DNA of 32,000 nt from Candidatus Omnitrophota bacterium. Lineage in GTDB: Bacteria > Omnitrophota > Gorgyraeia > Zapsychrales > JANLHA01. A program made the translations under genes and the position numbers. The DNA lies in the NCBI GenBank assembly GCA_963662715.1, contig OY759724.1:2910001-2942000 (forward strand), read 5' to 3'. Numbering within the stretch: the stretch's first letter is position 1; each line of letters starts with the position of its first letter. This document shows positions 3,553 through 31,855 of this stretch, one piece after another. A model generated the notes under the pieces. The model was given only the letters and a program-made list of their open reading frames with translations. It was not told where the DNA came from and did no database searches.

Positions 3553-3819
3553 GGGCATCCCGCCTCCGGCCAGCCAGGATAATGCTCAATGGCTCAATAA
3601 TCTTTTTCTCTTAAAAGTTCTCAGCCTTTGGGACGCAGTCGGAGGGAGGGGGTGCAGCATAAACGCCGTTTTTCTTAGTCAGATATTTTTTAATCTAGAA
3701 TGAGTTGTCAAGGATGTCTCCCCGGGAAGACTGTTTTTGTTCCGACGTTATTCATGCCTTCAAAAGGTCGCAAAAAATTTTAATCTTGTTTTGATTTAAA
3801 ACAATAAAAATAAAAAAGA

Positions 3820-3848
3820 TTGACATTCTAAAATTCCCCATGTAAGAT
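3820..3848 (+). promoter_or_regulatory. Sigma70-type promoter: -35 TTGACA (3820-3825), 17-nt spacer, -10 TAAGAT (3843-3848)
   Basis: Read directly. An AT-rich UP-like tract lies upstream (3795-3819). It sits about 30-60 nt before the first riboswitch aptamer. Confidence 0.6.
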
Positions 3849-3877
3849 TAATCCATTGTTTTATGTTTTTGTTCTTT

Positions 3878-4049
3878 GAGGTGTTATTCAGTACGATATA
3901 AAACCGAATAAAAAAGGGAAGTTCCGTGAGATTCGGAGGCTGTCCGGCAACGGTAATATTTACTTTTTAATTGTAAATGAGCCCGAACACTTTTTTGTTT
4001 TGGGAAGTACCTTCTGTGGAAAGGGAAGATAAAGAATCGGATACTATAG
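3878..4049 (+). promoter_or_regulatory. Cobalamin riboswitch-like aptamer, unit 1 of a tandem pair
   Basis: The core reads 'AAAAGGGAAGTTCCGTGAGATTCGGAGGCTGTCCGGCAACGGTAA' (about 3911-3956). A B12-box-like 'GAGCCCGAACAC' follows at 3979-3990. It resembles unit 2 and the cob-operon riboswitch in this window. It deviates somewhat from consensus (one C short in the CCCGC element), hence lower confidence. Confidence 0.65.
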
Positions 4050-4078
4050 CCGGCCTTTCTACAGGTCGGTTTTTTTTT
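4050..4078 (+). terminator. Intrinsic terminator (expression platform of riboswitch unit 1)
   Basis: A 7-bp stem CCGGCCT (4050-4056) / AGGTCGG (4063-4069) with one G-U pair and a 6-nt loop, followed by nine T (4070-4078). Confidence 0.75.
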
Positions 4079-4104
4079 GACATTGAATCATTTGCAACAT
4101 AAAT

Positions 4105-4264
4105 AAATCATTCAGCAGGGAATTCGGTGAGAGTCCGAAGCTGTACCCGCAACTGTAAGCTTCATCTCCTTTGAGGATATTTTAAGAGGAGTTGAAGTGA
4201 GCCAGAAAACGAAAACCTCCGGGAATAGAGGAGCTAAGCCTACCTTTGTGGAAAAGGCGTTGAA
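4105..4264 (+). promoter_or_regulatory. Cobalamin riboswitch aptamer, unit 2
   Basis: 'CAGGGAATTCGGTGAGAGTCCGAAGCTGTACCCGCAACTGTAAGC' (about 4116-4160) is a close match to the conserved cobalamin-riboswitch core (GGGAA..GGTGA.A.TCC..CTGT.CCCGCAACTGTAA). The B12 box 'GTGAGCCAGAAAAC' lies at about 4197-4210. Confidence 0.85.
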
Positions 4265-4296
4265 CCCAGCTTCTCTTTAGGAGACTGGGATTTTTT
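4265..4296 (+). terminator. Intrinsic terminator (expression platform of riboswitch unit 2)
   Basis: Stem CCCAG(CT)TCTC / GAGACTGGG (4265-4275 / 4281-4289) with a 2-nt bulge, followed by ATTTTTT. It lies 46 nt before the ATG at 4343. Confidence 0.7.
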
Positions 4297-4342
4297 ATTG
4301 AACAAACCCAAATAAATTATTTTAAGGAAAGGAGTTTTTGAA

Positions 4343-5881
4343 ATGCAGAAATTTTTAATCCCGCAGCAGTTTATTTGCATCATGGCCTTGGTCGGTTTGT
4401 TGATGCCTGGAAATGCTGTTGCCGAAAATAATTTCAGTGAATATGGTTCTAACCAGATTGGGAATATTGTTTTACCGGAAGTTGAAGCGGGATGGTTCGT
4501 TCACTTTGATGCCATAGGTGAAACAGACCAGATGATCGGGGCCTACCCGGCAAAAGGGAGGGTCCTGGCAGCCAACGGAACAAGCATTTACCTGCAAAAG
4601 AACTACGGGGCCGGAGCGCATTCAGGCGACTGGCAATGGAACGGACCTGATCAGGCTCACACCGGGAATCTTCCCGGAGGTAACGATAATTTTTTAGTTG
4701 TCGGGACTACCACTGAGACGATGGATCCCATTTTTATAAAAGTATCTCCTGACGGTAATACCGTTGCACTCGGCGTGAGCTGGACCTCGCAACTATTGTT
4801 AGTTTTTCCGATCAGCTTGTTAGACCCGGACAATCCGCCTGTGTTGGATACGCACCCGTCTGTTACCGCGTATACAATTAACTGCTATGAGGGTCAATGG
4901 GTGCCGGAAGAAGCCGGAACAGCAAACTACCGTTTAGCACTGAATGGCGGGTCTTGGCCCGGTCCTTTTGAAAGTGATGTCGCGGTGCTTGACGTTACAC
5001 AGCCCAACTCTGAAGATCTTCCCTACAATCCTGTGCCTGTTATCGGTTCTATAGGAGGAGCGAGTGCTGATATTGATTTTGATAATGACGGGAATATGAT
5101 CACAGGTTGCGGGTACGGAACAGATCCGGAAACCGGGCAAATTAAAATTTTTACCCGAACGGATTGGGAAACGGTATACGCATCCGGTGGATCAACCGCA
5201 CCGCTGGATTATGCTGCCGCAGGACACTTATTGGCAGAAAGCATTTTAAGCGCCGCGGCCATGGGTGTGGATAAAGACGATAATCTTCATGTCGGAGGCG
5301 GGGACTTTGTCGATGGCTCTGAAAATGGCTTCGCGGCCCTGGTTCACGCGGACGTTGTCGCTAGAGTATTAACCGGAGGGGATCCGGTTAATGAAGGACT
5401 TGCCAGTGAGTATAGACAGCTCCAACCGGATTATTATGGGGATGACTCAGCTACATCACCTATTGAATTCAATCTTTTGGGAGAAGGCTTGAATATCTGC
5501 TGGAATCCAACCGGTACCGGCACGCAGGGTTCCGGATCGGATTGGTGGCAGGTGGGAGTCAAACCGGTTATGACAACCTATTACGGTGTCGACGCTCCTG
5601 ATAGTGATGGTGATGATATCCCTGATACATCGGATAACGCTTACATGACCCCTAATCCTAATCAATGGGATGCGGACGAAGATTCGTTCGGCAATGCCTG
5701 CGACTGCGACCTGGATAACAATGGCTCTGTGGGATTCAATGATTACGATTTATTTGTCGCTCAGTTCGGCCAGCCGGGAGGCCCGGACCAGCCTGCTGAT
5801 TTCGACGAGTCAAGCACAGTGGGTTTTAATGACCTCGATGTATTAATTACCCGCTGGGGCCAGGAAGAGCCTTTTAAATAA
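4343..5881 (+). CDS. Secreted protein of unknown function. It has an N-terminal signal peptide, a central region with FG-GAP/propeller-like Ca-binding motifs, and a C-terminal thrombospondin type-3 repeat plus a two-segment dockerin-like module.
   Basis: RBS AGGAG lies 7 nt upstream. The signal peptide is 'ALVGLLMPGNAVA|EN'. The TSP3-like repeat is 'DSDGDDIPDTSDNAYMTPNPNQWDADEDSFGNACD'. Two EF-hand/dockerin segments are present, 'DLDNNGSVGFNDYDLFVAQFG' and 'DFDESSTVGFNDLDVLITRWG' (D-x-D-x-N/S-G/S-x-V-x-x-x-D plus helix), separated by a Pro/Gly linker. Confidence 0.8.
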   Translation: MQKFLIPQQFICIMALVGLLMPGNAVAENNFSEYGSNQIGNIVLPEVEAGWFVHFDAIGETDQMIGAYPAKGRVLAANGTSIYLQKNYGAGAHSGDWQWNGPDQAHTGNLPGGNDNFLVVGTTTETMDPIFIKVSPDGNTVALGVSWTSQLLLVFPISLLDPDNPPVLDTHPSVTAYTINCYEGQWVPEEAGTANYRLALNGGSWPGPFESDVAVLDVTQPNSEDLPYNPVPVIGSIGGASADIDFDNDGNMITGCGYGTDPETGQIKIFTRTDWETVYASGGSTAPLDYAAAGHLLAESILSAAAMGVDKDDNLHVGGGDFVDGSENGFAALVHADVVARVLTGGDPVNEGLASEYRQLQPDYYGDDSATSPIEFNLLGEGLNICWNPTGTGTQGSGSDWWQVGVKPVMTTYYGVDAPDSDGDDIPDTSDNAYMTPNPNQWDADEDSFGNACDCDLDNNGSVGFNDYDLFVAQFGQPGGPDQPADFDESSTVGFNDLDVLITRWGQEEPFK

Positions 5882-5942
5882 CACTTTTATTCACGAAGGA
5901 TGAACTGTCTAAATTATTTGTATTTTTAAGGAAGGAGAGGCA

Positions 5943-8168
5943 ATGAAAAAAATTGTTCAGTTACTAACGATGCTTGTCGTATTTACCCTGTGCCTTGGCA
6001 TTCAATCCGTGTCCGCGGAAGATCCCGAAACCAATTGGCAGTTGCAACTTAAAGGGGTCGACGGAGATCTTGTTCAAGGATCATACTACTACGTGGAAGT
6101 CTGGTTTGTTTCAACGGATAATGGCGATAGCGGCACCGCCAATGACGGTGAGCAAAATCTGAACCGTTTCGGGCTTGATATTGATTATGACGAAACACGT
6201 TTGGAATCTCCGGCCATACTGTATGAATCTTATACAGATCCGAATGACCCGTTCGTTGAGATTTGGGACGGAGGTATTGTTCCGACGACTATAGAGGAAG
6301 ATACCGGGTATATAAGGGATGTGAACGGGAGTGAGCCGTTAGGCAGCAGCGGAGTATTTTTCCCTGATGACTTAAACGGAAAATTAGCCACCATCAGGTT
6401 TACGGCAAAAGTAACAGGCTCCCAGACAGACATTTTAACATGGGTTGATCCGGATATAGACGGGCTCGCCAGAATAGACGAGGTCACGTATAATCTTGAT
6501 CCGCTCATCCTTTGGAAAGACGGAACGTCTCTCAACGGCACCTATCTTCAGGAATATTACAGACTGCATCTGGGAATTAACGCCTTCGGTCAGGATGAAT
6601 TCCCGCAGGAAGTAAGCGAGCAGACATATTTCACCGGTGTGGCTTCAGCGTTGCAGGCCTTGCGTTTTTTAGGCCCGGCATATACCTGGCCGACCCAGCA
6701 GGAATTGTATGATGCGTATAATACCGGTGATGTCGGAGACGATTTCACCGCGCCTGCGTTAGAGACCTTGCTTAACGCCCTCACCTATAATAACAGCGGT
6801 TCGCCGTTTTATCGCATCTATCATTTTTCTGATTACAACGATAGCGATGAAGACACGGCTATTAAGAGAATCATTCACTGGATCGATTATGATGTCCCGA
6901 ACGCCCCGGATGAACCTAATGCGCCGGCCCATGTGCCTTTAAACGGCGCATACAACTGGATGACGGTTCGGGGGTTTGTCAGCGATATCGCTCCGACCGT
7001 AGAGGGTAATGTCTGGTCCATCCCGGAAGATGTCACGGTATACGGGCTTTGGCTCAACGACCCCAATGAGGATGGAATGGGCTACAACATCTATATGACC
7101 GGCGATGCCTTTAAGACGGCCTATGAGACTGTGGATGGAGGTCATCGCTCCGTTGTCGAGCCTCCTCTAGATGATGAAAAAATACAGAAATTTGAACAGG
7201 CTTTACCGGACATGAAAATCAATTATGTGAAAAGAAAAGCCAATAAACAACTCGCTCAGGCCATAAGATCAGATATGGAATTAACTTGGGATAAAAAAGA
7301 AGTTCTGGCCGCCAAGGAAGAATTAGATGAAACCCTTCTTCAACCTTTGGCTGAGGACGTGTTTGATCAATTCAAGTCACTAAACTGGGAAGACGTTATC
7401 CCGGAAGAATTGATGGCATCTCCTGATTTTAACAGCCTTTATTCAGAAACACCCTTTGCCTTGCCCATGACTGTCTTGAATGAGGAGAGTGCTACTGTCT
7501 ACACCCTCGTGCTTTTTGGCAAAGAACGGCCGCGCATGATCAGGAAATTGTATAAGGCCTATGCGGCCGTTGTGGTCGATGAAGAAGGCGTATTCCAGGA
7601 AGCATCCTGGACAACCTCCGGGGACACCTATCTTACGGAACGGGGAGCTTTGCATCTGGCCAAAAAAGCGCTGAAAGAAAACTACTTCAAAGAATTAAAA
7701 ATTTGGAAACGTTTATCAGGATCCCGCCGCTGGGACGTTGATATCGTCTTTCATCCGGAACTCAGCGGCAGTGTTTTTCTCCCGGTTTTTCAGGTGACTT
7801 CGCCTTTCGGCCCCGTTGTTTATGTGACACAGGATGGGGAAACGCAGATTGAAGGGGATGTCGATCCGGAGTTGAGAAAGGCGCTGCGGATAACGGCAGC
7901 CAAAAGAATAAAAAAAGCTGTTCTTGAAGAGACGACAAATAAGAAAGAAGACTTTCGGCAAGACGCTTTAGCACGTCTGCCTGTCATCAGCGTTGATGTC
8001 TCAGAACAGGACAATACTGTCGGTGTCCGTATTGACCCGGAAGATGCCAAAAAAACAAAAGAAATTATTGAAAGGGTTGCCGAACTCTACAAAGAAAAGA
8101 CCAATGCCGATGTTGTCACTGTCGTGCATTATGTCGGAGGTAAAATTTTCAGTCGATCGACTCATTAA
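5943..8168 (+). CDS. Secreted protein of unknown function with an N-terminal cohesin-like domain and a K/E-rich C-terminal region
   Basis: RBS GGAGAGG is present. The signal peptide is 'FTLCLGIQSVSA|ED'. Residues about 30-170 follow the cohesin pattern: 'GSYYYVEVWF', 'FGLDIDYDETRLES', 'GKLATIRFTAKVTG'. The rest is unassigned. The domain call is by eye only. Confidence 0.75.
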   Translation: MKKIVQLLTMLVVFTLCLGIQSVSAEDPETNWQLQLKGVDGDLVQGSYYYVEVWFVSTDNGDSGTANDGEQNLNRFGLDIDYDETRLESPAILYESYTDPNDPFVEIWDGGIVPTTIEEDTGYIRDVNGSEPLGSSGVFFPDDLNGKLATIRFTAKVTGSQTDILTWVDPDIDGLARIDEVTYNLDPLILWKDGTSLNGTYLQEYYRLHLGINAFGQDEFPQEVSEQTYFTGVASALQALRFLGPAYTWPTQQELYDAYNTGDVGDDFTAPALETLLNALTYNNSGSPFYRIYHFSDYNDSDEDTAIKRIIHWIDYDVPNAPDEPNAPAHVPLNGAYNWMTVRGFVSDIAPTVEGNVWSIPEDVTVYGLWLNDPNEDGMGYNIYMTGDAFKTAYETVDGGHRSVVEPPLDDEKIQKFEQALPDMKINYVKRKANKQLAQAIRSDMELTWDKKEVLAAKEELDETLLQPLAEDVFDQFKSLNWEDVIPEELMASPDFNSLYSETPFALPMTVLNEESATVYTLVLFGKERPRMIRKLYKAYAAVVVDEEGVFQEASWTTSGDTYLTERGALHLAKKALKENYFKELKIWKRLSGSRRWDVDIVFHPELSGSVFLPVFQVTSPFGPVVYVTQDGETQIEGDVDPELRKALRITAAKRIKKAVLEETTNKKEDFRQDALARLPVISVDVSEQDNTVGVRIDPEDAKKTKEIIERVAELYKEKTNADVVTVVHYVGGKIFSRSTH

Positions 8169-8197
8169 CCAGTAAATACCATTAAAAGGAGGAAATT

Positions 8198-8383
8198 ATG
8201 CAGATCAAACTCAGAAAAAAACTAAGAAGTAAAAAAGGCGCCAGCGCTGTTGAATATGCCTTGATAGCCGGTTTGGTTTCTGTGGTGCTTATCGCAACGC
8301 TTGGCTCGTCAGGAACTTTCGGCACAGCGTTTACGGGTATGTTTGGCCGGCTTGCCGATGAATTAGATGCTGTTCAACCGTAA
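8198..8383 (+). CDS. flp: Flp-family type IVb/IVc pilin
   Basis: 61 aa with a basic leader, then the Flp processing motif 'G|ASAVEYALIAGLVSVVLI' (G/xxxxEY followed by a hydrophobic helix). RBS AAAGGAGG lies upstream. Confidence 0.9.
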   Translation: MQIKLRKKLRSKKGASAVEYALIAGLVSVVLIATLGSSGTFGTAFTGMFGRLADELDAVQP

Positions 8384-8811
8384 TGAAATTCTTTAATGCT
8401 TCAAAACGAACACCGTTTGGATTAGAAAGCGGGGCATCAGCCGTGGAGTTTGCGCTGGTGCTCCCTTTCTTGCTAATTGTCTTTTTTGCAATCTTTGAAA
8501 TGTCATGGCTTGTTTCGTCACAGACGATCCTCAATCACGCTGTTTTTGAAGCCGGCCGGACAGCCGCGATTGCCAAAGAAGAAGGATATTCTGATACGGA
8601 CGCGACGTCTTATGCGAAGGCAAGAGCCGTGAACTCCTATTGGATGGGGGCTCTGGACCCGGATGATGTGACGGTGAATTTTGATGAAAGCGGCTATGTC
8701 CCGCAGGTTGAAATATCCGCCCTGATGAACTATGTCCCTTTAACGGGGTGGTTTGACGCAAGCCAGCTTCCCGGCCAGATCACATCCCAGGCGGCTATGC
8801 CGTATCATTAA
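8383..8811 (+). CDS. tadE: TadE-like pseudopilin
   Basis: The N-terminus 'SGASAVEFALVLPFLLIVFFAIFE' is the TadE/TadG-like motif. It has a TAATG overlap with flp. Confidence 0.8.
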   Translation: MKFFNASKRTPFGLESGASAVEFALVLPFLLIVFFAIFEMSWLVSSQTILNHAVFEAGRTAAIAKEEGYSDTDATSYAKARAVNSYWMGALDPDDVTVNFDESGYVPQVEISALMNYVPLTGWFDASQLPGQITSQAAMPYH

Positions 8812-8829
8812 TGACAGGAAAGAAGACCA

Positions 8830-10068
8830 ATGAAAAATGTGCGAGGAATGATAGCCTTTTTGATCGCCTTGTTTTGCGGTTTGATCGCCGCGAAAATGAC
8901 ATCAAAATATCTGAGGGAACTGCAAACGCCGCAGCCGCCGCAACCGGACATTGAAATGCAGGATATAGCGCCGATGGCCCCCGGGCAGGACAAGCCATTT
9001 ACGCAATCAATCCCCCAGGGCATGCGGGCTTTGAGTATACCGGTTGATGAAGTGACCGGGGTTTCCCGGGAAGTCAACAAAGGGGATATCGTTGATGTGG
9101 TTGCTGTATCTAAAGCCTCAGCCGAATGTAAGAATAAAGACGGCCGTATCGCCCGGGTGATTTTACAGGGAATAGAGGTTTTAGCAGCGGCCGCTCAGCA
9201 GGAGGAAGAGGACAAGCCGGCGTTACAAGTCACTAAGAAAGAAAAAAAGTGGGTGGCGACTCTTCTGGTCAAAGCGGAAGAGGCCCCTCTGCTGGCAGCG
9301 GCTGACGCTTCGGCCGATTTAAGACTCGTTGTCAGAAATCCTTCTGATGACATAGCCTTGCAAGAGCCTCTTGCAAGGGGGTTCGATAAAAAACAGGGCA
9401 GCTATGTCCACCGCGACCAACGGCAGATTCCTCCTGTTGATATGAAGAAACTCGTCCGTCCGGGCATGCGCGCTTTTACCCTGATTACGGAACTGGAAGA
9501 CGGTGTTTCCGGCCGTCTGCAGCCGGGAGACAGGGTTGATGTCATTTTGACCTGCCCCTTCGGGCATTTTAGTGCCAAGGGCCATGAGGCGGGGGCCGAA
9601 GGGACGATCACATCAACCCACATGGCATCGCGTATTTTTTTGCAGGACATTGAAGTTTTGGCCGTTGATGAAAACGAAAGGCTCGTCATGCCGCCTAAGC
9701 TTTCCAATGATAACCTGAATGACGTTATGCCGACGGAAAATGCTGCGGTGACGGAAGTGGTCCGTTCCGTTGTCCTGCATCTTAGCCCGGAAGATGCCGA
9801 GTTGCTGGCGGTCGCTCATGATGCGACAGAAAAAAGTGTTATACGCCTGGTTCTTCGCCATCCGGAGGATGCCGGGATAGTCAAAACAGACGGTCAGCTG
9901 TTAATTGAGCTGTTAACGGAAAAAAAGGAGTATTCCAATGTAGAAGTTATCCGCGGGATAGAGCAAACTGCAAAGAAATTTTTTAAATACAAAAAAGGTG
10001 CGATTGCGACGCGTTCTGAAGCTTTGTTTAATCTGCCTGATGTTGATGATAGGGATGGGAACGAATGA
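8830..10068 (+). CDS. cpaB: CpaB/RcpC-like Flp pilus assembly protein with a tandemly duplicated RcpC-type domain
   Basis: An N-terminal TM anchor is followed by two similar modules. Module 1 is 'GMRALSIPVDEVTGVSREVNKGDIVDVVAV...LQGIEVLAA...LRLVVRNPSD'. Module 2 is 'GMRAFTLITELEDGVSGRLQPGDRVDVILT...LQDIEVLAVD...IRLVLRHPED'. It sits between tadE and the secretin. Confidence 0.75.
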   Translation: MKNVRGMIAFLIALFCGLIAAKMTSKYLRELQTPQPPQPDIEMQDIAPMAPGQDKPFTQSIPQGMRALSIPVDEVTGVSREVNKGDIVDVVAVSKASAECKNKDGRIARVILQGIEVLAAAAQQEEEDKPALQVTKKEKKWVATLLVKAEEAPLLAAADASADLRLVVRNPSDDIALQEPLARGFDKKQGSYVHRDQRQIPPVDMKKLVRPGMRAFTLITELEDGVSGRLQPGDRVDVILTCPFGHFSAKGHEAGAEGTITSTHMASRIFLQDIEVLAVDENERLVMPPKLSNDNLNDVMPTENAAVTEVVRSVVLHLSPEDAELLAVAHDATEKSVIRLVLRHPEDAGIVKTDGQLLIELLTEKKEYSNVEVIRGIEQTAKKFFKYKKGAIATRSEALFNLPDVDDRDGNE

Positions 10069-11708
10069 AAACATATTTCATAATACTGCTCTCTTTGATT
10101 TTTTTGTGTTGTGCGGCTGTGGCAAATGTTTCGGCGGAAGATATGGAGGACTATCGTGATGTGCGGGAGACTGTCTCACAGAAAAATCAAGGGAAGAAAA
10201 TTTCACTTGAACTAAATAAATCCTTGTTATTTCGCCTGGAAAGACCGGCTATCCGCGTATCAATTTCGGCGACAGATGTCGCAGACGTCACCCTGCTCAC
10301 CCCCCGGCAGATACTCGTTGTATCTAAGAAAATTATCGGAACGACCAATTTGATTGTCTGGTATGACGAAGAAGAGGTGGAGTCCTTTGATGTTGAGATC
10401 TTTATCCCCAACCGTTTGCTGGAGATCATTGAATCCACCATTAAAGAACACGCCCCCCGGGCCTACATCACCCTGAATATCACTCCTACAAGCATTATTA
10501 TCGACGGTTTTGTTGAAGACCAGGAAACTTTTCTTCGTGTTGAAAAAATCGTCAAAAGCTACGTCCCGAACGTCACTAATCTCATCAAAATACGGGGAAC
10601 GATTCAAAAGGCCATTAATCGGGTGACCGGAGGAGAACACGTTAAAGTCATTATGGAAAAATCAGGCCTTTTGCTGGACGGGACGGTAGACAGTCAGGCG
10701 ACTCTGATCCGGGTGCTGCAAGTGGCCCGGGGCTACTCAAAAGATGTCAATAATATGATGACCGTTAAAAGTCCGCAACAGGTTCAGCTGGAAGTCACCA
10801 TTGCCGAAGTCTCCCGCAGCGCGATCAAACAACGCGGATTAAGTTATTTGTTAAACTCTGACGGCGGCCGGCTGGGACTTTTAAAGTCAGGAGCCTTATC
10901 AGATACCAGCGATGATTCTTCCGGCAGTTATTCGATTGAAAGTGAAGGTGTTCCTGATTTGAATGATGTCGCTAGCGCTCTGTGGGGGGCACAAGTCTCT
11001 GATGTCCTGTCGGACTCGGCCGTGAATTCGGCTTATGGCTCAGCCTTCCAGATTCTGGTACAGTCTATGGATGATAACTGGCTTTCGATCATCAGTCTTT
11101 TGAAAGGTCAGGGGCTGGCGAGGACCCTCGCGACACCAACCCTGGTCGCCCTCAATGGCCAAAAAGCGAAATTTCTTGTCGGGGGAGAAATTCCTTATGT
11201 TACGGAAGAGGCGATCATTTTCCGGGAATTTGGCATTCAACTGGAATTCACGCCTTATCTTACGGGTAAAGAAAGCATGACACTTGTTGTTGAACCGACG
11301 GTGAGCTCGGTGGACTGGTCTTTTGACCCGCCGGGATTAAAGGAACGCGCCGGGTCGACAACCTTGAGCCTAAAAGACGGACAGACATTTGTGATGGCCG
11401 GGCTCATCACAGAAGAATTTTCCGAAATCAGCAATAAAATTCCATTTTTGGCTGACATCCCCGTGCTCGGTTCGCTTTTTGAAAGCAAGCAGTTCCGGAA
11501 AAGCGAATCAGAATTGATTATCGTTGTGACGCCGCGTTTAGTCCGGCCCCTGAATCGAAATGAATTAAAGAAAGTGCCTATTTTTAAACAGCCTAAAGAT
11601 ATCAATGATGAGGAATTTTTCCTCTATAAAACAAACACAGACTCGAATGTGACAGACCGTAATTCCGCTCCCCCGCAGACTGTGGGGACATTCGGGTTCG
11701 CAAGGTAA
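10065..11708 (+). CDS. cpaC: CpaC/RcpA-family outer-membrane secretin
   Basis: A signal peptide is present, with a CpaC N-terminal domain ('LELNKSLLFRLERPAIRVSISATDVADVTLL...TTNLIVW'). Two BON-like modules follow. The secretin core reads 'LATPTLVALNGQKAKFLVGGEIPY' and 'IPFLADIPVLGSLFESK...SELIIVVTPRLV'. Confidence 0.9.
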   Translation: MKTYFIILLSLIFLCCAAVANVSAEDMEDYRDVRETVSQKNQGKKISLELNKSLLFRLERPAIRVSISATDVADVTLLTPRQILVVSKKIIGTTNLIVWYDEEEVESFDVEIFIPNRLLEIIESTIKEHAPRAYITLNITPTSIIIDGFVEDQETFLRVEKIVKSYVPNVTNLIKIRGTIQKAINRVTGGEHVKVIMEKSGLLLDGTVDSQATLIRVLQVARGYSKDVNNMMTVKSPQQVQLEVTIAEVSRSAIKQRGLSYLLNSDGGRLGLLKSGALSDTSDDSSGSYSIESEGVPDLNDVASALWGAQVSDVLSDSAVNSAYGSAFQILVQSMDDNWLSIISLLKGQGLARTLATPTLVALNGQKAKFLVGGEIPYVTEEAIIFREFGIQLEFTPYLTGKESMTLVVEPTVSSVDWSFDPPGLKERAGSTTLSLKDGQTFVMAGLITEEFSEISNKIPFLADIPVLGSLFESKQFRKSESELIIVVTPRLVRPLNRNELKKVPIFKQPKDINDEEFFLYKTNTDSNVTDRNSAPPQTVGTFGFAR

Positions 11709-11711
11709 AAT

Positions 11712-12884
11712 ATGAATTACGAAGAATATCAATACGCTATTATTTCTTTGGATGAAAAATTCACGGCCCATATTAAAAGAATTCTCAATCCCGCCATAAC
11801 GGCAGATCACATTATCTCCGCCGGTTCTTTAACACGGCTGCCAGTAAGTCAAAAAACTATTGTATTATTCGATGCGCGGACGTTGAATGTCCAGTCCATG
11901 GAATGTGCCCGGCAGTTTAAAAAAAGGAAAAGGGACGCTAAATTTCTGATTATTTCGGACAACATGGATCCTCATGAGATACGAAACTGGATGAGACTGG
12001 GAGCGGTTGATTATTTGACGCCCCCTTTAGATAGTAAAGAATTGCTGAATGCCGTTCAGCGCATGGTCGATTTAGACCATTCCCAAAATTTCAACGACTC
12101 GCAGGTTATGGGGGTCTTCAGCTTGAAAGGCGGACAGGGGGTTACATCCATAGCCACCAATATGACTGACCATATCACCCGTCTCACGCATGAAAAAAAC
12201 CTGTTAATGGACCTTAATCTTTATATGGGGCATATGTCTGTTCTTTTAAATCAAAAATGCACCTATACCCCTTTTAATCTGGTCCGGGATTTGCCGCGGG
12301 CGGATGAAGACCTTCTCCTGTCTTCTATAGAAAAACACGAAAACGGGTTCCACCTTTTGGGAGTTTCAGATGAGATTGCCGATGCGGAGCAGATCAGCCG
12401 TGAAGATGTGAAATCCATGCTTCAAGTATTAAGAAAAGTTTTTAATTTTATTGTCGTTGATCTCCCGCATGACTTTTCCAACCAGACCCTGGCCGCTCTT
12501 GATGAGTCCGATAGCATTCTTCTTGTTGTTCAACAGAGCGTGCCGAGTTTGAAAAGCGCCCAAATGGCCATTCAAATATTCGGGGAACTCGGGTATCCGG
12601 ATCATAAGGTCCATGTGGTTTTAAACCGGTATCTCAGCCGTAATCCCATTCAACACGATGATATTGAGGTAGCCCTGAATAAGCCTGTGTTTATGTCTTT
12701 AGAGAATAATTATCCCGTTATGTCGGAAGTTTTTAACAGCGGTCAGACCATTCATTCATTTGAAAGGCATTCAGATATTAACATAACATTTCATCATTTT
12801 GCAGCAAAATTGATCGGTGTAAATCCGGCCTTGAAACGCATGAGAACATTAAAAAGGCTCTTTTCGAGAATTAAAGGATCATAG
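11712..12884 (+). CDS. cpaE: TadZ/CpaE: atypical receiver domain plus ParA/MinD-like ATPase
   Basis: The N-terminus is receiver-like and lacks the conserved KP lysine ('DYLTPP'). A deviant Walker A occurs in 'FSLKGGQGVTSIATN'. It sits between the secretin and tadA. Confidence 0.8.
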   Translation: MNYEEYQYAIISLDEKFTAHIKRILNPAITADHIISAGSLTRLPVSQKTIVLFDARTLNVQSMECARQFKKRKRDAKFLIISDNMDPHEIRNWMRLGAVDYLTPPLDSKELLNAVQRMVDLDHSQNFNDSQVMGVFSLKGGQGVTSIATNMTDHITRLTHEKNLLMDLNLYMGHMSVLLNQKCTYTPFNLVRDLPRADEDLLLSSIEKHENGFHLLGVSDEIADAEQISREDVKSMLQVLRKVFNFIVVDLPHDFSNQTLAALDESDSILLVVQQSVPSLKSAQMAIQIFGELGYPDHKVHVVLNRYLSRNPIQHDDIEVALNKPVFMSLENNYPVMSEVFNSGQTIHSFERHSDINITFHHFAAKLIGVNPALKRMRTLKRLFSRIKGS

Positions 12885-12889
12885 CCTTT

Positions 12890-14239
12890 ATGAGCTTAAC
12901 GGAACGTTTCCTGAGAAACCAAAAAAGTGATAAAAATTATCACAACGAGCAGTTGACAATCGATGAGGCCTCTTTTGATAAAGCCAAATTGCTTGTTCAT
13001 GAAAAGGTCGTTGAGATCATGGATTTATCCAGTATCATGGAAATGCCCCGGGAAGAGCTTGAACGGTCTGTCCGGGATATTTTGATCCAAATGCTCGAAA
13101 CCGAAAAGATCCCGCTCAACAGAGCAGAACGTTCGCGTTTGATTTCGGAATTGTTAAATGAAATCCTGGGTTTGGGCCCTATTGAACTATTGATACATGA
13201 TGAAAGCGTACAGGATATCCTTATTAACGGAAGCAAAAACGTTTATATTGAAAAACAGGGTGTCATCCATCAAACAGCCATTCATTTCCGGAATGACGAA
13301 CATTTGATGCAGGTGATTGACAAAATTGTATCCAAAGTGGGCAGACGGGTGGATGAATCCTCCCCTATGGTTGATGTCCGGCTGCCCGACGGATCGCGCG
13401 TAAATGTCATTATTCCCCCTGTTGCTTTGGATGGGCCGCAGGTATCCATTAGAAAATTCGGTGACACCCGGTTAACACAGGAAGGGTTACTACAACATCA
13501 GAGCGCTACGGCCCAAATGACGGCATACCTTCAAATGGCGCTACGCTCCAAACTGAATATCCTTATTTCGGGCGGAACAGGCAGCGGGAAGACGACGTTG
13601 TTGAATATTTTATCAGGCCATATCCCGCATAACGAAAGAATCGTAACCATCGAAGATATTGCTGAACTTAAGTTAAACCAGCCTCATGTCGTGCGGCTGG
13701 AAAGCCGCCCGGAAAACATTGAATCCAGGGGGGAGATCACATTGACAGACCTCGTTAAAAACAGCCTGCGTATGCGGCCGGACCGAATTATTGTCGGAGA
13801 GACGCGGGGGGGGGAAGTCCTGAACATGCTTCAGGCCATGAATACAGGGCATCCAGGCTCCATGAGCACAATACATGCTAATTCCCCCCGGGATGCTTTC
13901 TCCCGCATGGAAGTGATGATTGGTATGGCTCCGACCATTTTATCAGAACGGGGAGCCAAAGGTTTGATCGCCAGTGCTATTAATGTGATCGTTCAATGTT
14001 CACGTCTTGTCGACGGCTCGCGCAAGGTCATATCCATTTCCGAAGTCTGCGGGATAGAAGACGGCGAAATCATGACGCACGAAATTTTCATTTTTGAACA
14101 GCAGGGGATCAGTGAGGAGGGGCGAGTCTACGGCTGTTTTAAGCCCGTAGGTTCAACATCCATTTACAAGGAACATTTCTTGTCTAACGGCATGGAACTG
14201 CCCCCGGCCCTGTTTCATTTCCAGCAAAAGGTTCGTTGA
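12890..14239 (+). CDS. cpaF: TadA/CpaF secretion ATPase
   Basis: Walker A is '[12 protein letters not shown]', Walker B/Asp box is '[12 protein letters not shown]', and the His box is '[12 protein letters not shown]'. Confidence 0.93.
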
Positions 14240-14240
14240 A

Positions 14241-15179
14241 ATGGTTTTGTTAATAACCATCATTGTTTTTTTGACAATATTTTTTTCCGTGCTGACGGTG
14301 TATTTCCTGAAAGAGGACAATCGGCGTAAAGTTAAGAACACTTTACTTATACGATTGCTTCCGGCTGAAGAAGCCCTGCCGCATCATTTTTATCGTCTGA
14401 ATTCCCAAGTAGCGGACTCTCATGATTTTTGGTTAGCCAAGAAAATCAGGAAGCATCTGGAAATCGCCAACATGGAAATCCCGGTTAAAACTTTTATTTT
14501 TTATTGTTCTCTTATATCCGTTATAACATTAATTTTATTTTTATTCCTGACGGGGCCTTTAACGGCCTTAACAATGAGTTTATTGTCAGGAGGGCTTGGG
14601 CCTTTTTTGTACATCATGTATCGCCGGCATAAAAGAGAAAATGCCTTGGTTGCGCAGTTGCCCGATGCCGTTGATATGATCAGCCGGGGCCTTCGCTCGG
14701 GGCTGAATCTGGATGATAGTCTCAAGGAGATTGCCCGCTCCTTTTCAGACCCCATCGGACCGGAATTCAGGCGCATGTATGAAGAAATGGCGCTTGGCCT
14801 GTCCTTCGAGCAGGCTATAAGAGGTTTAGAAAGCCGTTTTGTCCGGGTACATGACGTGAAAATTCTTTGCGCGGCGTTTCTGATTCAGAGGGAAACAGGG
14901 GGGAACTTAACGTCTATTCTGGACACAATATCCAGGACGATCCGTTCCCGCCTGGTGTTTTTCCGCCAGGTACAAGCTCTGGGGACAGAAGGCCGCGTGT
15001 CGGCCTACATCCTCGGCAGCCTGCCTTTTTTGTTTGCTCTTATTACTTGGTTCATTCAGCCAGACTATATTAATCTGCTGTTTACAGAACCGGCGGGAAA
15101 AACGGCTTTAAGTTTAGCCTTGATTTTTGAGATGGCAGGATTCGCTCTTATGTACAGGATGGGAAAGGTGGAGGTATGA
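14241..15179 (+). CDS. tadB: TadB (type II secretion system F-family inner-membrane platform protein)
   Basis: Polytopic membrane protein with a T2SSF-type cytoplasmic domain ('LPDAVDMISRGLRSGLNLDDSL'), immediately after tadA. Confidence 0.85.
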   Translation: MVLLITIIVFLTIFFSVLTVYFLKEDNRRKVKNTLLIRLLPAEEALPHHFYRLNSQVADSHDFWLAKKIRKHLEIANMEIPVKTFIFYCSLISVITLILFLFLTGPLTALTMSLLSGGLGPFLYIMYRRHKRENALVAQLPDAVDMISRGLRSGLNLDDSLKEIARSFSDPIGPEFRRMYEEMALGLSFEQAIRGLESRFVRVHDVKILCAAFLIQRETGGNLTSILDTISRTIRSRLVFFRQVQALGTEGRVSAYILGSLPFLFALITWFIQPDYINLLFTEPAGKTALSLALIFEMAGFALMYRMGKVEV

Positions 15180-16081
15180 TCATAACTATTGCGGTTTTTA
15201 TCTTTATGACGGTTTTTGGCATAATTATCAGCTTGTATTATACAACCGAAATCATTCATCAGAAAAACATCTTATTCCGTCGGCTTTCGGTTGTCCGTCA
15301 TGAAAAATCAGACCATGTTTATAAAACAGCCCTGGTCAATATTTTCATGCATTTGGGCCGGCTTATTTTGCCCCAACAGAATACAGACCGGCACCTGATT
15401 TTGGAATGCCTGAAACGCACGGGATACCGTAACGAAAATGCCCTGTCATTTTTTTACGGTTTACGCATGATATCTGCTTTGGGAACGGCTTTGCTTATTC
15501 TGTTTTTTTCGATGCTCCTTCATGTGAAATCTCTGGTCGTGTGTTATGCGGGAGTACTTTTGGGGTATTATCTGCCTCTGTGGCTGTTGAAATGGAAAGA
15601 AAAACAAAGAGCCCAGACCATCTTCCGGGAATTGCCGGATGCTTTGGACATGTTTATTGTCTGCATGAATGCCGGATATAACTTTGACCGCGCATTGTTC
15701 CGGGTCAGCCAGGAACTTCGCCAGATTGCTCCTGTCTTGTCCAAAGAATTTGAACGTTATTTTTATGAAGTGGAAAGTGGATTGCCTGTCCAGGAAGCTC
15801 TCGGTAATTTAATAAACCGCAATCAGGTTGAAGAATTAACCAGTGTTGTGCAAATTTTAATGCAGTCGGCCCGCTTTGGAACGGATATCATTCATGCCCT
15901 TAAAATTCATGCCGAAAGTCTAAGAACCAAACGCCGACAGATGGCAGAACAAAAAGCGGCCAAAGTTTCGGTGAAGCTGGTTTTTCCAACGATCCTTTTT
16001 ATTATGCCCGCGATGATTTTGATCATCCTCGGGCCAACCGGAATCCGGTTTATTGAAAAATTAAAGGATTTAAAATGGTGA
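15176..16081 (+). CDS. tadC: TadC (type II secretion system F-family platform protein)
   Basis: Paralogous T2SSF architecture ('LPDALDMFIVCMNAGYNFDRAL'). It has a 4-nt overlap with tadB. Confidence 0.85.
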   Translation: MIITIAVFIFMTVFGIIISLYYTTEIIHQKNILFRRLSVVRHEKSDHVYKTALVNIFMHLGRLILPQQNTDRHLILECLKRTGYRNENALSFFYGLRMISALGTALLILFFSMLLHVKSLVVCYAGVLLGYYLPLWLLKWKEKQRAQTIFRELPDALDMFIVCMNAGYNFDRALFRVSQELRQIAPVLSKEFERYFYEVESGLPVQEALGNLINRNQVEELTSVVQILMQSARFGTDIIHALKIHAESLRTKRRQMAEQKAAKVSVKLVFPTILFIMPAMILIILGPTGIRFIEKLKDLKW

Positions 16082-16881
16082 AAAAATTATTATGTTTTGT
16101 GGCCGTTTTTTTATGTTTTGGTTGTTCGTCAACTCATGTCCTGAATGAAATATATCCCCGGGAAGTCCGCTATATCCCTGCTCACGAATTAAACGCTGAG
16201 AAATCCTGGGATTTGAAAACCTGTACCAGCCGTGTAGAGATAGCCCGGAGGCTTATGGGGAAAGGGTTCCATGAAGTCGCCCTGAGACAGTTGAAAGAGG
16301 AGGTTAAAGGGCAGGGGACCAATTCGGCGGAAATTTTATATTTGATCGGTATTTGTGAGCGGGAAATGGGAGATAAACATAAAGCCAAAAGATCATTCCA
16401 GGCCGCCCTGCGTTATGATGCTAATTATGCCCCTGCCTATGACGGGCTGGGCGTCGTATGCTTTTTGGAAGGATATCTTTGGCAGGCAGAAAAGTTTTTC
16501 AAGAAAGCGGTGGAACTTGACCCGGGACGAGCCGATTTCCAGAATAATTTAGGATTCCTTTATCTTCATAAACGCAATTTTTTACTGGCAGAGAAGCGCT
16601 TCAGGAGATGTTTGTCCATTGATCCGAATTTCACCAAAGCGATCAATAATCTGGGTAGTTGCTTGGCTCTCTTAGCCAGGGAGGAGGAAGCTCTTGCTGT
16701 TTTTCAAGAGATCATGTCTAAAAGTGAAGCTTTAAATAATATGGGTGTTGTCTTTGAAGTGGCTGACCAGGAAGCAAAAGCTTTGGAATACTATCAAAAG
16801 GCCGTTAGGGCGGAACCCTCCCTGACTATTGCCCAGAACAACTTAAAGCGATTTAAGAAAATCATCAACAGGACGGAATAA
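16075..16881 (+). CDS. tadD: TPR-repeat lipoprotein, TadD-like
   Basis: The lipobox is 'FLCFGC|SS'. Several TPR-like repeats are present ('ALRYDANYAPAYDGLGVV', 'AVELDPGRADFQNNLGFL', 'CLSIDPNFTKAINNLG', 'AVRAEPSLTIAQNNL'). It overlaps the tadC stop. Confidence 0.75.
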   Translation: MVKKLLCFVAVFLCFGCSSTHVLNEIYPREVRYIPAHELNAEKSWDLKTCTSRVEIARRLMGKGFHEVALRQLKEEVKGQGTNSAEILYLIGICEREMGDKHKAKRSFQAALRYDANYAPAYDGLGVVCFLEGYLWQAEKFFKKAVELDPGRADFQNNLGFLYLHKRNFLLAEKRFRRCLSIDPNFTKAINNLGSCLALLAREEEALAVFQEIMSKSEALNNMGVVFEVADQEAKALEYYQKAVRAEPSLTIAQNNLKRFKKIINRTE

Positions 16882-16893
16882 AGGAGCGAAATT

Positions 16894-17193
16894 ATGACAT
16901 GCGGGACAGAACGTGGTGTTTTTATCCTACGAATATGTTTTTTTGTTTTTATTTTAAGCGGCCTGCAGGGATGCGCCCCGGTTGCTGAGGAAACATATCC
17001 TTTCGGCGAATCTTCCAAAACATTATTTGCGGCACAGGTCATCAATCCGAATGCCCCGGAAGATCCCTCCCCGGTTAATGAAATGCCCGGGCAGGTCAGT
17101 GAGCTGATCTATTATCAACGTTATATGGATGAGATGGTCACCCCGGAAGATGAAGAAGAAAAAAGCAGCGGAGGGACATGTCATAATGGATAA
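16894..17193 (+). CDS. Small acidic lipoprotein of unknown function (tad-locus accessory)
   Basis: The lipobox is 'ILSGLQGC|AP'. It is 99 aa with an acidic C-terminus and is tightly packed between the tadD-like and tadG-like genes. It may resemble the small DUF3613-type proteins of other tad loci, but that rests on recall only. Confidence 0.55.
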   Translation: MTCGTERGVFILRICFFVFILSGLQGCAPVAEETYPFGESSKTLFAAQVINPNAPEDPSPVNEMPGQVSELIYYQRYMDEMVTPEDEEEKSSGGTCHNG

Positions 17194-18625
17194 GCTTCCT
17201 GGGGCCAGCAGGATATCCCGCACTTTGTCTAGCGAGAAAGCTAATATCAGTATTGTTGTCGCCTTAAGTATGGTGACGATCGTATTTTTTGTGGCCCTGG
17301 CCTTTGACCTTGGTTTTCTCGTGATGGAGAAGGACAGCTTGCGGAACAAGACAGAGGCTGCGGCTAAAAGCGGGGTTCAGGTCCTGCATAAAGATTCAAC
17401 CTATATGCAGGCCTTTTGGGCTTCCTATGATTCCTATCAAAGAAACGATGAAATTTTACCGCCTATCTATTTATATCAGCGTTTTCATCCCGGGTATTAT
17501 GATTATAAAAAGCTTTACTCGGACTTTCCCCATTTTAAGAATTTTGCCTCTGTTAGATACGGAGAAGTCCCTGCGGATGAGCCGTGTAATGCGGTTGCAA
17601 TACTCGATATGCCCAAAGCCGTTCAGACTATCGAAATCAAACCTTCCGGGGCAAGTACGGGCCGTGTACAGTCGGCAGGGATGGCCTATGCCAAAAACTA
17701 TACATTTCTTGCTTTAAGCGATGCGTCAGATGCTATGCGCTGGTATGGCTGGGAAGACGGGTATTCAAATTATAAAAATTGTCTTATTGGCTCCAACGGC
17801 GGCATTGAATTCTATGGAACGGAAACTTTTGACAATAAGACTGTCGTAGAAGCCGGCGGGGCCGTTGTTAATGACAACGGCAATGTCCAGATCAATTCCA
17901 TTGACAAGATTCGGCTTCCGGATATCAACTGGGACGCCTTGAGAGAACAGGCTGTAAGCAACGGGATGGTTTACGACCCTGAAACGTGGTCAGACAGCTG
18001 GACCGAAGATGCGTTCGGCAATCAACTTAGACGCTTGGTCAGTGGTTCGGCTCCCAATCAGACAATACATTATTTTTTTATTCCCCAGGGTGAAGATGAG
18101 GACGGCGTGCTTGGGACAGAGGGGGACCACGACGGGCGGACATATTTTTTCGAGATTCCGGACCCGCTTCCAACCGGTGTCTCAGAGATCTATTTAAACA
18201 TGATGAATACAGATCATGCGCCGGCTAATCGCATTTTTTGGAACTGTACCATAGCCGCACGATGCAATATCAGTACCTATCCCAACCCCTCCTACGGTCC
18301 GTATCTTTCCACTAAATATGGCAACTATGAAGCTTACGGCGAAGACGGGCTGGTCTATATTTACGGGAAGCGGTTTTATCGCTGGTACACACGTTACAGT
18401 CATCTCCCTGTCTCTCTTCCCTATGGGACCGTCATCCGGGTTGAAGAGGATTTTACGATGTACAGTCAGTATCTTCTGTCATTTTTTGGCGTCCCGGAAA
18501 ATTATTACCTTAAAGTGATAGCAGATACCATGTATTTGTACTCTCCCACCTGGCGAAAAAATGCCATTGAATTTCACGGCAATTTTGGCGCTCCTGACCT
18601 TTTCCGCATCGGAAGCCTGGAATAG
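17186..18625 (+). CDS. tadG: TadG-like pilus assembly protein / large pseudopilin
   Basis: The N-terminus 'EKANISIVVALSMVTIVFFVALAFDLGFLVMEKDSLRNKTEAAAKSG' is typical of the TadG/Tad N-terminal domain. I prefer the ATG at 17186 over the ORF-track start at 17129: it has RBS GGAGGGA about 10 nt upstream and overlaps the upstream stop. Confidence 0.7.
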   Translation: MDKLPGASRISRTLSSEKANISIVVALSMVTIVFFVALAFDLGFLVMEKDSLRNKTEAAAKSGVQVLHKDSTYMQAFWASYDSYQRNDEILPPIYLYQRFHPGYYDYKKLYSDFPHFKNFASVRYGEVPADEPCNAVAILDMPKAVQTIEIKPSGASTGRVQSAGMAYAKNYTFLALSDASDAMRWYGWEDGYSNYKNCLIGSNGGIEFYGTETFDNKTVVEAGGAVVNDNGNVQINSIDKIRLPDINWDALREQAVSNGMVYDPETWSDSWTEDAFGNQLRRLVSGSAPNQTIHYFFIPQGEDEDGVLGTEGDHDGRTYFFEIPDPLPTGVSEIYLNMMNTDHAPANRIFWNCTIAARCNISTYPNPSYGPYLSTKYGNYEAYGEDGLVYIYGKRFYRWYTRYSHLPVSLPYGTVIRVEEDFTMYSQYLLSFFGVPENYYLKVIADTMYLYSPTWRKNAIEFHGNFGAPDLFRIGSLE

Positions 18626-21082: not shown

Positions 21083-21099
21083 ATTCATCTAACAATTTG

Positions 21100-21281
21100 A
21101 AAAGACATAAGCGCTTTCTTTGGGAAAGCTAAAAGGGAAATCCTGTTAAATTCAGGAACGGTCCCGCCGCTGTAACCGGAGGAGATTCCCGGGAGTCAGA
21201 AAACCTTCTTATGTTGTGAGCATAAGGTGCTGCGTAAGACAGTGTTCGTGCAACAAAAAGGACCAAAGTTGATAAGGGTGC
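21100..21281 (+). promoter_or_regulatory. Cobalamin riboswitch
   Basis: P1 is CATAAG (21106-21111) paired with CTTATG (21208-21213). The core reads 'AAAAGGGAAATCCTGTTAAATTCAGGAACGGTCCCGCCGCTGTAACCGGAGG'. The B12 box is 'GAGTCAGAAAACC' (21193-21205). It lies upstream of cobalamin genes. Confidence 0.9.
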
Positions 21282-21317
21282 AATCCTTAAGTGCAAATCG
21301 CGCTTAAGGATTTTTTA
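21282..21317 (+). terminator. Intrinsic terminator (expression platform of the cob-operon riboswitch)
   Basis: A perfect 10-bp stem AATCCTTAAG (21282-21291) / CTTAAGGATT (21303-21312) followed by a T-run. It overlaps the 5' extension of the ORF-track model 21291-21953, which supports the later start at 21330. Confidence 0.8.
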
Positions 21318-21329
21318 TTGAAATCAGAA

Positions 21330-21953: not shown

Positions 21954-21963
21954 GGATATTCGT

Positions 21964-26340: not shown

Positions 26341-26392
26341 TAAACAGCTTCTCCAGAAAAGATGATTTTTTAAGGCATCCGGGAATCATTTT

Positions 26393-27901: not shown

Positions 27902-27911
27902 GGAGCGTGTT

Positions 27912-28574: not shown

Positions 28575-28577
28575 TTT

Positions 28578-30417: not shown

Positions 30418-30420
30418 ATC

Positions 30421-31796: not shown

Positions 31797-31855
31797 AACG
31801 GCACAAGGAAGGAAACAGCCCTCAAAATAAATCATTATTTGAAACATGTTATTGT

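Follow-up and report, generated by a model that had tools for sequence, protein, structure and literature searches.

We analyzed a 32,000-nucleotide (nt) stretch of the genome of a Candidatus Omnitrophota bacterium (GCA_963662715.1, OY759724.1:2,910,001-2,942,000, forward strand; hereafter the window), in which a Tad/Flp pilus locus stands behind two predicted cobalamin riboswitches. An Rfam scan placed four cobalamin-clan aptamers in the window, all on the + strand; two form part of the leader that precedes a string of 13 genes. The leader opens with a sigma-70-like promoter (TTGACA-17-TAAGAT; 3820..3848, +) that agrees with the consensus at 10 of 12 positions and is a consensus match only, matches of this type being at chance level across the region. 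The first aptamer (3901..4000, +) is a short form of the adenosylcobalamin (AdoCbl)-II or class-II type and aligns over the full RF01689 model (1-81) with 42.5 bits against a gathering score of 36.5. The second (4119..4210, +) consists of the RF00174 core with the outer helices unaligned, and reaches 40.2 bits against a gathering score of 31.5 with only model positions 47-167 aligning. Downstream of the former, by 48 nt, the terminator scan, the sequence and the fold agree on an intrinsic terminator with a G+C-rich stem of 9 bp (4048-4071) followed by T9 (4048..4080, +). The latter is followed after 55 nt by a hairpin at 4265-4289, CCCAGCUUCUC...GGAGACUGGG, which together with AUUUUUU makes up the second terminator (4265..4297, +; identified by fold and sequence) and appears in the minimum-free-energy fold and the centroid fold alike. 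Our own covariance model, R1, built from 26 related aptamers, matches both units end to end, though at low scores (3862-4076 with 31.6 bits and 4078-4237 with 32 bits; E ~2e-7), and each unit retains the conserved core sequence GGGAA..GGUG..CCGCAAC.GUAA..GCCAG together with an intact terminator. The original prediction, which described a promoter followed by two cobalamin-riboswitch-like units, each with a hairpin and a T-run, is thus confirmed by Rfam, the terminator scan and the folds, and both aptamers exceed the gathering scores of their families. A search of the leader with Rfam for an aptamer of cyclic di-GMP (c-di-GMP) found none.

Riboswitches in tandem for the same ligand have been tabulated for thiamine pyrophosphate and for AdoCbl (PMC9481103, Table 1), and such units are expected to respond more steeply and tightly. 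The leader of the window likewise has two units of aptamer and terminator in series for one ligand; the mechanism is not new, but the two units are of different subtypes, one RF01689-like and the other an RF00174 core.

Thirteen open reading frames (ORFs) follow on the + strand (4343-18625), separated by gaps of 61, 29, 18, 3, 5, 1 and 12 nt and otherwise joined by five overlaps, and the earlier description of this layout, including gaps devoid of a hairpin and T-run, proved exact on recount. The terminator scan detected no terminator-like site in the gaps (across the whole region it gave 26 sites, compared with 21.6 +/- 4.3 by chance), and a consensus scan of the + strand was free of promoter-like sites from 6494 to 8779. 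The first two genes, ORF1 (4343..5881, +) and ORF2 (5943..8168, +), encode proteins with predicted signal peptides, and the other eleven are Tad/Flp genes. The flp prepilin gene (8198..8383, +; PF04964, E 6.6e-14; processing motif KKG/ASAVEYALIAG) begins 29 nt past ORF2 behind a strong ribosome-binding site (AAGGAGG), the gap containing no hairpin. It is followed on the same strand by genes for a tadE-like pseudopilin (8383..8811; PF07811, E 2.5e-13), cpaB/rcpC (8830..10068; PF16976, E 6e-44), the outer-membrane secretin cpaC/rcpA (10065..11708; Secretin, E 6.8e-39, with T2SS-T3SS_pil_N and BON) and a cpaE/tadZ-like ParA-type ATPase with a receiver-like N-domain (11712..12884; AAA_31, CBP_BcsQ and Response_reg near or below cut-offs). 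The pilus ATPase cpaF/tadA (12890..14239; T2SSE, E 3.2e-65) precedes the platform proteins tadB (14241..15179; T2SSF, E 4.2e-16) and tadC (15176..16081; T2SSF, E 2.3e-16) and a tadD-like tetratricopeptide repeat (TPR) protein (16075..16881; TPR families, E down to 3.6e-23). The last two genes of the string, also on the + strand, encode a small lipoprotein of 99 aa (16894..17193), whose translation has the lipobox LQGC and belongs to no family, and a tadG-like protein (17129..18625, likely true start near 17186), for which PF13400 Tad gives a weak N-domain match (E 1.6e-4). TadA/CpaF, TadB/TadC, RcpA/CpaC and RcpC/CpaB are all far over the Pfam cut-offs; TadE and the TPR protein TadD are clear, CpaE and TadG are weak by Pfam, and the position of the latter two is conserved across the Tad clade. 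Homologues of the lipoprotein occupy the same position in nine of the related loci described below (L082, L129, L130, L131, L001, L004, L006, L089 and L101).

The set had originally been called complete. Pfam upholds the assignment of ORFs 3-13 to a Tad/Flp system including the secretin; strict completeness does not hold because the window lacks a prepilin peptidase gene, and no distinct TadF was recognized by Pfam in the set. The locus shares with Aggregatibacter tad and Caulobacter cpa the G/xxxxEY motif of Flp, TadE, RcpC/CpaB, the secretin, TadZ/CpaE, TadA/CpaF, TadB, TadC, the TPR protein TadD and TadG, in canonical order. It differs from them in having no TadV/CpaA, in being preceded by, and probably cotranscribed with, two genes for secreted proteins, and in that the Tad genes sit behind metabolite riboswitches. 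To our knowledge, the regulation of Tad described so far is by protein regulators.

The linkage between riboswitch and pilus genes recurs in related genomes. We gathered loci of the ORF1 family by scanning genomes and metagenomes with an ORF1 alignment, and found the one-strand layout of RF00174, ORF1 homologue and flp-tad in four further loci, L080, L082, L088 and L100, where the aptamers score 133.6, 127.8, 72.2 and 85.1 bits, respectively. The order in these codirectional loci is aptamer, zero to two PEP-CTERM proteins, ORF1 homologue, a protein with what we call the pre-flp domain (see below), flp, tadE, rcpC, secretin and the rest. In L082, flp starts 18 nt past its neighbor, and the stretch ahead of flp showed no terminator in L080, L088 and L100. 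To sample from the Tad side, we searched with CpaB and took the three best new contigs (L129, L130 and L131). All three Tad loci are without ORF1 and ORF2 within 10 kb, yet each has a full-length, same-strand RF00174 aptamer just upstream (74.9, 65.5 and 112.3 bits), separated from the first gene by a G+C-rich hairpin and a T-run. That gene is flp in L129 and L130, and a cNMP-binding AraC-type regulator followed by flp in L131. As the riboswitch here stands directly ahead of flp with neither ORF1 nor ORF2, Tad appears to be targeted by the riboswitch independently of those two genes. One cluster, with 57-72% identity, unites the aptamers of L088 and L100 (ORF1 first) with those of L129 and L130 (flp first), and therefore one riboswitch lineage heads both layouts. 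The Tad proteins nearest to those of the window are from L129 and L100 (73% and 63% identity for Flp, 51% and 50% for CpaB). With G+C contents of 38-60% and protein identities of 33-66%, the eight loci that combine riboswitch and Tad are not one clone. On these sequence data, the proposal that the Tad locus is under the control of cobalamin riboswitches is supported, with four loci from the ORF1 side and three from the Tad side adding to the window.

Some features of these loci vary. A prepilin peptidase is encoded between flp and tadE in L088 (5198-5758), L100 (14031-14543), L129 (9070-9561) and L131 (5655-6185). It is missing from that place in the window (8383-8830), L080 and L082, the three loci with the most mutually similar ORF1. 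A gene for a hybrid PAS histidine kinase/receiver protein lies in the window at 18817-21006, on the same strand and 191 nt past tadG, and its position is not conserved in L129 and L131. A cNMP-binding AraC-family regulator is found directly behind a cobalamin riboswitch in L131 (4308-5380), L081 (1-1025) and L084 (1836-2966), which suggests a cascade from riboswitch to transcription factor.

ORF1 belongs to an unnamed family of secreted proteins with a beta-propeller, thrombospondin type-3 (TSP3) Ca-binding repeats and a dockerin-like module. The AlphaFold2 (AF2) model (predicted local distance difference test score, pLDDT, 81.6; predicted template modeling score, pTM, 0.84) has the propeller first and the Ca-binding repeats after it. 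A profile search against PDB sequences matched the C-terminal 90 residues to TSP3 (E 4e-27) and to dockerin chains (E 4.5e-4 to 3e-3), and PF00404 is precomputed for three members of the family (P0009, P0016 and P0018); the evidence for a dockerin, with its duplicated Ca-binding loop-helix, is weak yet consistent. Pfam gave no family for ORF1 even at an E of 10. The 50 best Foldseek matches in PDB were generic WD40/PQQ propellers (template modeling score, TM, 0.3-0.5), and a search with only the propeller domain yielded 189 cluster representatives out of 1.84 billion; of these 189, the ten scanned showed no named propeller domain. We considered whether ORF1 could be a homologue of BtuG (PF16819) and rejected this, as Pfam has no match, the Foldseek matches are generic and the PDB profile matches cover only the TSP3/dockerin part.

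The ORF1-family loci come from Desulfobacterota (including Desulfosarcina, Desulfatiglandales, Desulfobulbus and Syntrophobacteraceae), Myxococcota (Sorangium, Labilithrix), Planctomycetota and others. Counting as informative the loci that extend 1 kb or more beyond the 5' end of a full-length ORF1 homologue, a same-strand upstream cobalamin aptamer was detected with Rfam and R1 in ~40 of 43, the exceptions being L015, L087 and L097; the independent cases are fewer than this, because some of the loci are near-duplicates. As a control we used 64 loci (997 kb) retrieved via TSP3/dockerin matches alone. This set contained two aptamer matches, both directly 5' of partial homologues of the ORF1 propeller in Planctomycetota (L017 9322-9538 and L019 9584-9770), and the 62 remaining unrelated loci had none (0/62). 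Given this control and the recurrence of riboswitch and tad in eight loci, we rejected a chance juxtaposition of the two. As judged from sequence, the ORF1-type propeller, widespread and as yet unnamed, belongs to the B12 regulon. In Myxococcota (Sorangium, Labilithrix and others; L002, L003, L007, L008 and L010-L014) and in the Planctomycetota loci L017 and L019 it stands directly behind a cobalamin riboswitch with no Tad nearby, and L011 has two ORF1 paralogues with one riboswitch apiece.

The neighbors of ORF1 homologues include DUF4465, a domain shown by experiment to bind B12 (PMC13398666). It is encoded directly before the homologue in seven loci (L081, L083-L085 and L089-L091) and earlier in the same operon in three (L001, L004 and L005). 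With the ORF1 family nearly always behind a cobalamin riboswitch and often beside DUF4465, the earlier idea that the first two genes serve in corrinoid capture gains support. Directly 5' of the ORF1-tad riboswitch of L082, genes at 3618-8859 encode Fur, a TonB-dependent receptor (Plug), a methyltransferase, ExbB, ExbD and TonB. The Bacteroides loci that combine btuB with BtuG, BtuH and BtuJ/DUF4465 are repressed by riboswitches and provide extracellular or surface cobamide scavengers (PMC13398666, PMC13616437), as we propose for the ORF1 loci. Those loci have no pilus or secretin machinery, however, ORF1 is a different, unnamed propeller family, and anchoring in the ORF1 system would be by dockerin/cohesin-like or PEP-CTERM modules rather than by lipidation.

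Many leaders of the ORF1 family in Desulfobacterota combine a cobalamin aptamer with a c-di-GMP-I aptamer (or the GGC variant) in tandem. We located such cobalamin/c-di-GMP-I leaders in L001 (8167-8594), L004 (4984-5414), L005 (5673-6073), L006 (6115-6531), L081 (1420-1819), L083 (522-986), L084 (3117-3520), L085 (36-363), L089 (314-676), L090 (3929-4327), L094 (1483-1968) and L101 (1206-1542). An unusually dense cluster, with four cobalamin aptamers on both strands within ~3.3 kb and a c-di-GMP aptamer, lies upstream of the operon of DUF4465 and ORF1 in L090 (1021-4327) and L091 (794-4100). Sherlock et al. 2022 put the number of AdoCbl/c-di-GMP tandems at two to three, described the AdoCbl/c-di-GMP-I tandem of Desulfobacca acetoxidans without an analysis of its genes, and speculated on a link between B12 and pili, namely conductive pili, without gene evidence (PMC9481103). 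Tandems of cobalamin and c-di-GMP are common in our data and tied to operons of secreted proteins with PEP-CTERM and dockerin tails. The island of D. acetoxidans has an AdoCbl OFF switch with a terminator and a c-di-GMP-I ON switch, a leader type that it shares with the ORF1-family operons listed above; the window differs in having two cobalamin aptamers and no c-di-GMP aptamer, and a target that includes an explicit Tad locus.

ORF2 is a three-part protein with a weakly cohesin-like N-domain, a unique middle and a C-terminal domain of ~75 aa. The homologue search returned seven homologues only, Pfam at E up to 10 gave nothing but noise (DsbC_N, HMA), and Foldseek with the whole AF2 model, which is of moderate quality (pLDDT 68), gave nothing under an E of 1e-3. 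Foldseek matched the N-domain to cohesin chains with a probability of 0.95-0.99, E of 0.02-0.05 and TM of at most 0.50, in a region of the model with a pLDDT of ~50. The same N-domain is found in small PEP-CTERM-tailed proteins encoded beside ORF1 homologues elsewhere. As judged from these models and matches, the dockerin-like tail of ORF1 probably binds to ORF2 at its cohesin-like N-domain. The arrangement resembles the cohesin-dockerin system of cellulosomes in that ORF1 ends in a dockerin-like module, and ORF2 and the small neighboring proteins have a weakly cohesin-like domain. Unlike in cellulosomes, the host is Gram-negative, carbohydrate-active enzymes are absent, the case for a cohesin is weak, and what is carried would be a beta-propeller controlled by B12.

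The C-terminal domain of ORF2 (residues ~664-741, window 7932-8165) has the motif LPLLSV...GEVWIRIxPE...LY...VxVxLWVGGR and no Pfam family, and is modeled by AF2 as beta-beta-alpha-beta-beta with a pLDDT of 85-89. We call it the pre-flp domain, as in all the codirectional loci (window, L080, L082, L088 and L100) the gene just ahead of flp encodes a protein that terminates in it. In addition to the window, copies are found in L082 (12135-12386), L088 (4607-4864), L100 (~12790-12960), L080 (~5050-5374), L001 (14586-14891), L004 (17623-17949) and L005 (15014-15370). In L088 and L100 it is joined only to a membrane anchor and linker, and in L001 and L004 it sits between the ORF1 operon and a convergent Tad cluster. 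The domain may couple the module of ORF1 and ORF2 to the Tad machine.

The explanation that we favor, and regard as probable, is that of a cobamide-repressed operon in which the two riboswitches gate ORF1, ORF2 and the tad genes as one surface starvation response. Transcription would start near 3850 and then have two successive cobalamin riboswitches to pass. When cobamide is plentiful, both aptamers would bind the ligand and transcription would stop at 4080 and/or 4297; when it is scarce, read-through would continue into ORF1, ORF2 and the eleven tad genes, a unit of 14.3 kb with no terminator between its genes, the passage from ORF2 into flp being predicted from the sequence of the junction. 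Two OFF switches in series would make for less leakiness and a sharper response. ORF1 docked on ORF2 would form a tethered extracellular pair for corrinoid capture, a view that we favor because of the riboswitch regulation, the DUF4465 and TonB-system neighbors, and the dockerin and cohesin-like modules. As part of the same starvation program, the Tad/Flp pilus would attach the cell to a surface, a biofilm or a cobamide-producing partner. The c-di-GMP aptamers in related leaders point the same way, because they tie the genes to the sessile state.

Several observations weigh against this explanation. The aptamers of the window are only 6-9 bits over the gathering scores, and the second matches only part of RF00174. 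Genes for flp often carry strong promoters of their own, and a separate internal promoter for flp may lie inside ORF2; the gaps before flp, 255 nt in L080 and ~700 nt in L100, could likewise hold a promoter. In six loci (L001, L004, L006, L089, L094 and L101, for which the fetched DNA ended short of the flp ends), a same-clade Tad cluster adjoins the ORF1 operon in convergent orientation, and cannot be driven from the riboswitch of that operon. The propeller of ORF1 has no specific likeness to BtuG or another known B12 binder by Pfam, Foldseek or the PDB profile. No ORF in the 32-kb window matches the prepilin peptidase family Peptidase_A24 (TadV/CpaA), and this enzyme may be encoded elsewhere in the genome. 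Finally, we know of no established biochemistry that would explain why B12 should act on a pilus.

The regulation could also be as we propose and the purpose another, with the Tad machine forming part of a device for cobamide acquisition and not primarily an adhesin, although we consider this unlikely. The secretin and pilus could export or display the complex of ORF1 and ORF2 in a manner similar to type II secretion, or a retractile pilus could draw bound corrinoid in to the surface, in the way that competence pili handle DNA. In 11 loci an ORF1 module and a Tad locus adjoin, in either orientation, and the pre-flp domain recurs in all four other codirectional loci and also in L001 and L004, both of which would fit such a device. 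ORF1 and ORF2 of the window, moreover, are without the PEP-CTERM anchors that their relatives carry, and therefore have to reach the surface, or be held there, in some other way. On the other hand, L129-L131 have riboswitch and Tad with no ORF1 or ORF2 within 10 kb, and these stand-alone loci speak for a pilus that is useful with no such module beside it; the cohesin assignment comes from a low-confidence region of the model, and we know of no Tad system that secretes folded proteins or takes up small molecules. A specific form of the idea, which we regard as doubtful, is that in a clade of Desulfobacterota cells starved of B12 build a pilus and secretin that display, export or retract a propeller that acts as a corrinoid trap, tethered by cohesin and dockerin and coupled by the C-terminal domain of ORF2. 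If the Tad machine did serve in acquisition, this would be a case of a type IV-like filament used for vitamin foraging.

The convergent clusters also bear on a different alternative, according to which the riboswitches gate only the capture pair of ORF1 and ORF2, and Tad is an independent unit that abuts it in an island of cell-surface genes. Besides these six loci with Tad on the opposite strand, the wide gaps before flp in L080 and L100 and the homologues of ORF1 and ORF2 without a nearby Tad (L002-L003, L007-L014, L081 and L083-L087) are consistent with such independence. It does not account for L129-L131, where the riboswitch is directly ahead of flp without ORF1 and ORF2, and it sits poorly with the gaps of 29 nt in the window, free of terminator and promoter-like sites, and 18 nt in L082; we thus think it quite improbable. 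That the two short aptamers of the window are degenerate remnants which have lost cobamide binding, the operon being constitutive or otherwise controlled, would agree with their near-threshold scores, the partial match of the second and the single long aptamers of 65-134 bits in homologous loci, but is very improbable given the conserved core and intact terminator in both units, the recognition of short class-II aptamers as a functional class (RF01689) and the conserved position of the leader.

Control of the operon by cobamide would set it apart from known cases. Regulons of cobalamin riboswitches are textbook cases of a metabolite feeding back on its biosynthesis and transport and on B12-independent isozymes. 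The riboswitch, the tandem arrangement and the Tad locus are known as parts; the conserved coupling of riboswitch and Tad, the families of ORF1 and ORF2, and the pre-flp domain appear to be undescribed so far. Full-text searches of the literature that paired cobalamin (B12) riboswitches with Flp, Tad or pili returned no report of a link, which agrees with the assertion of the original prediction that a Tad operon under such control had not been described. What came closest in print was the above speculation on conductive pili (PMC9481103). A parallel is offered by Clostridioides difficile, in which a c-di-GMP riboswitch in the leader of the pilin operon controls type IV pilus genes (reviewed in PMC11477304). 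In both cases a leader riboswitch would decide whether transcription proceeds into pilus genes, but in C. difficile the ligand is a second messenger and the switch is of the ON type, whereas in the window the ligand would be an enzyme cofactor and the switch of the OFF type, and the class of pilus differs.

If true, the conserved link to a pilus would extend the regulons of cobalamin riboswitches to cell-surface behavior, and a shared vitamin that most microbes obtain from their neighbors would directly tell cells to attach or deploy surface machinery. This has a bearing on how the cross-feeding of cobamides shapes anaerobic and syntrophic communities. Taken together, the window and the c-di-GMP/AdoCbl leaders of its relatives suggest a "sessile AND B12-starved" logic for the deployment of corrinoid scavengers. 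The system also offers a defined candidate ligand for inducing Tad pili where the triggers are unknown, and an entry point to two unannotated families, the propeller-dockerin protein ORF1 and ORF2.

The surroundings of the locus, too, have the B12 theme previously ascribed to them, as borne out by Rfam and Pfam. Upstream lie two genes for B12-binding radical SAM proteins (window 521-3552). Downstream, an RF00174 aptamer at 21092-21226 (+) heads the genes cobC-cobU-cobT-cobS-cobD-cbiB-cobQ-btuFCD-cobO, in an operon (21092-31796) of 12 genes that include one of the Diphthami_syn_2 family (27912-28574). The cob/btu operon contains genes for late assembly, salvage and transport only, with none for the early corrin ring in view. 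A further cobalamin riboswitch starts at 31841 and is cut by the end of the window (32000). At the other end of the window, an IS200-like ORF (Y1 transposase) is found at 63-410, upstream of the two radical SAM genes.

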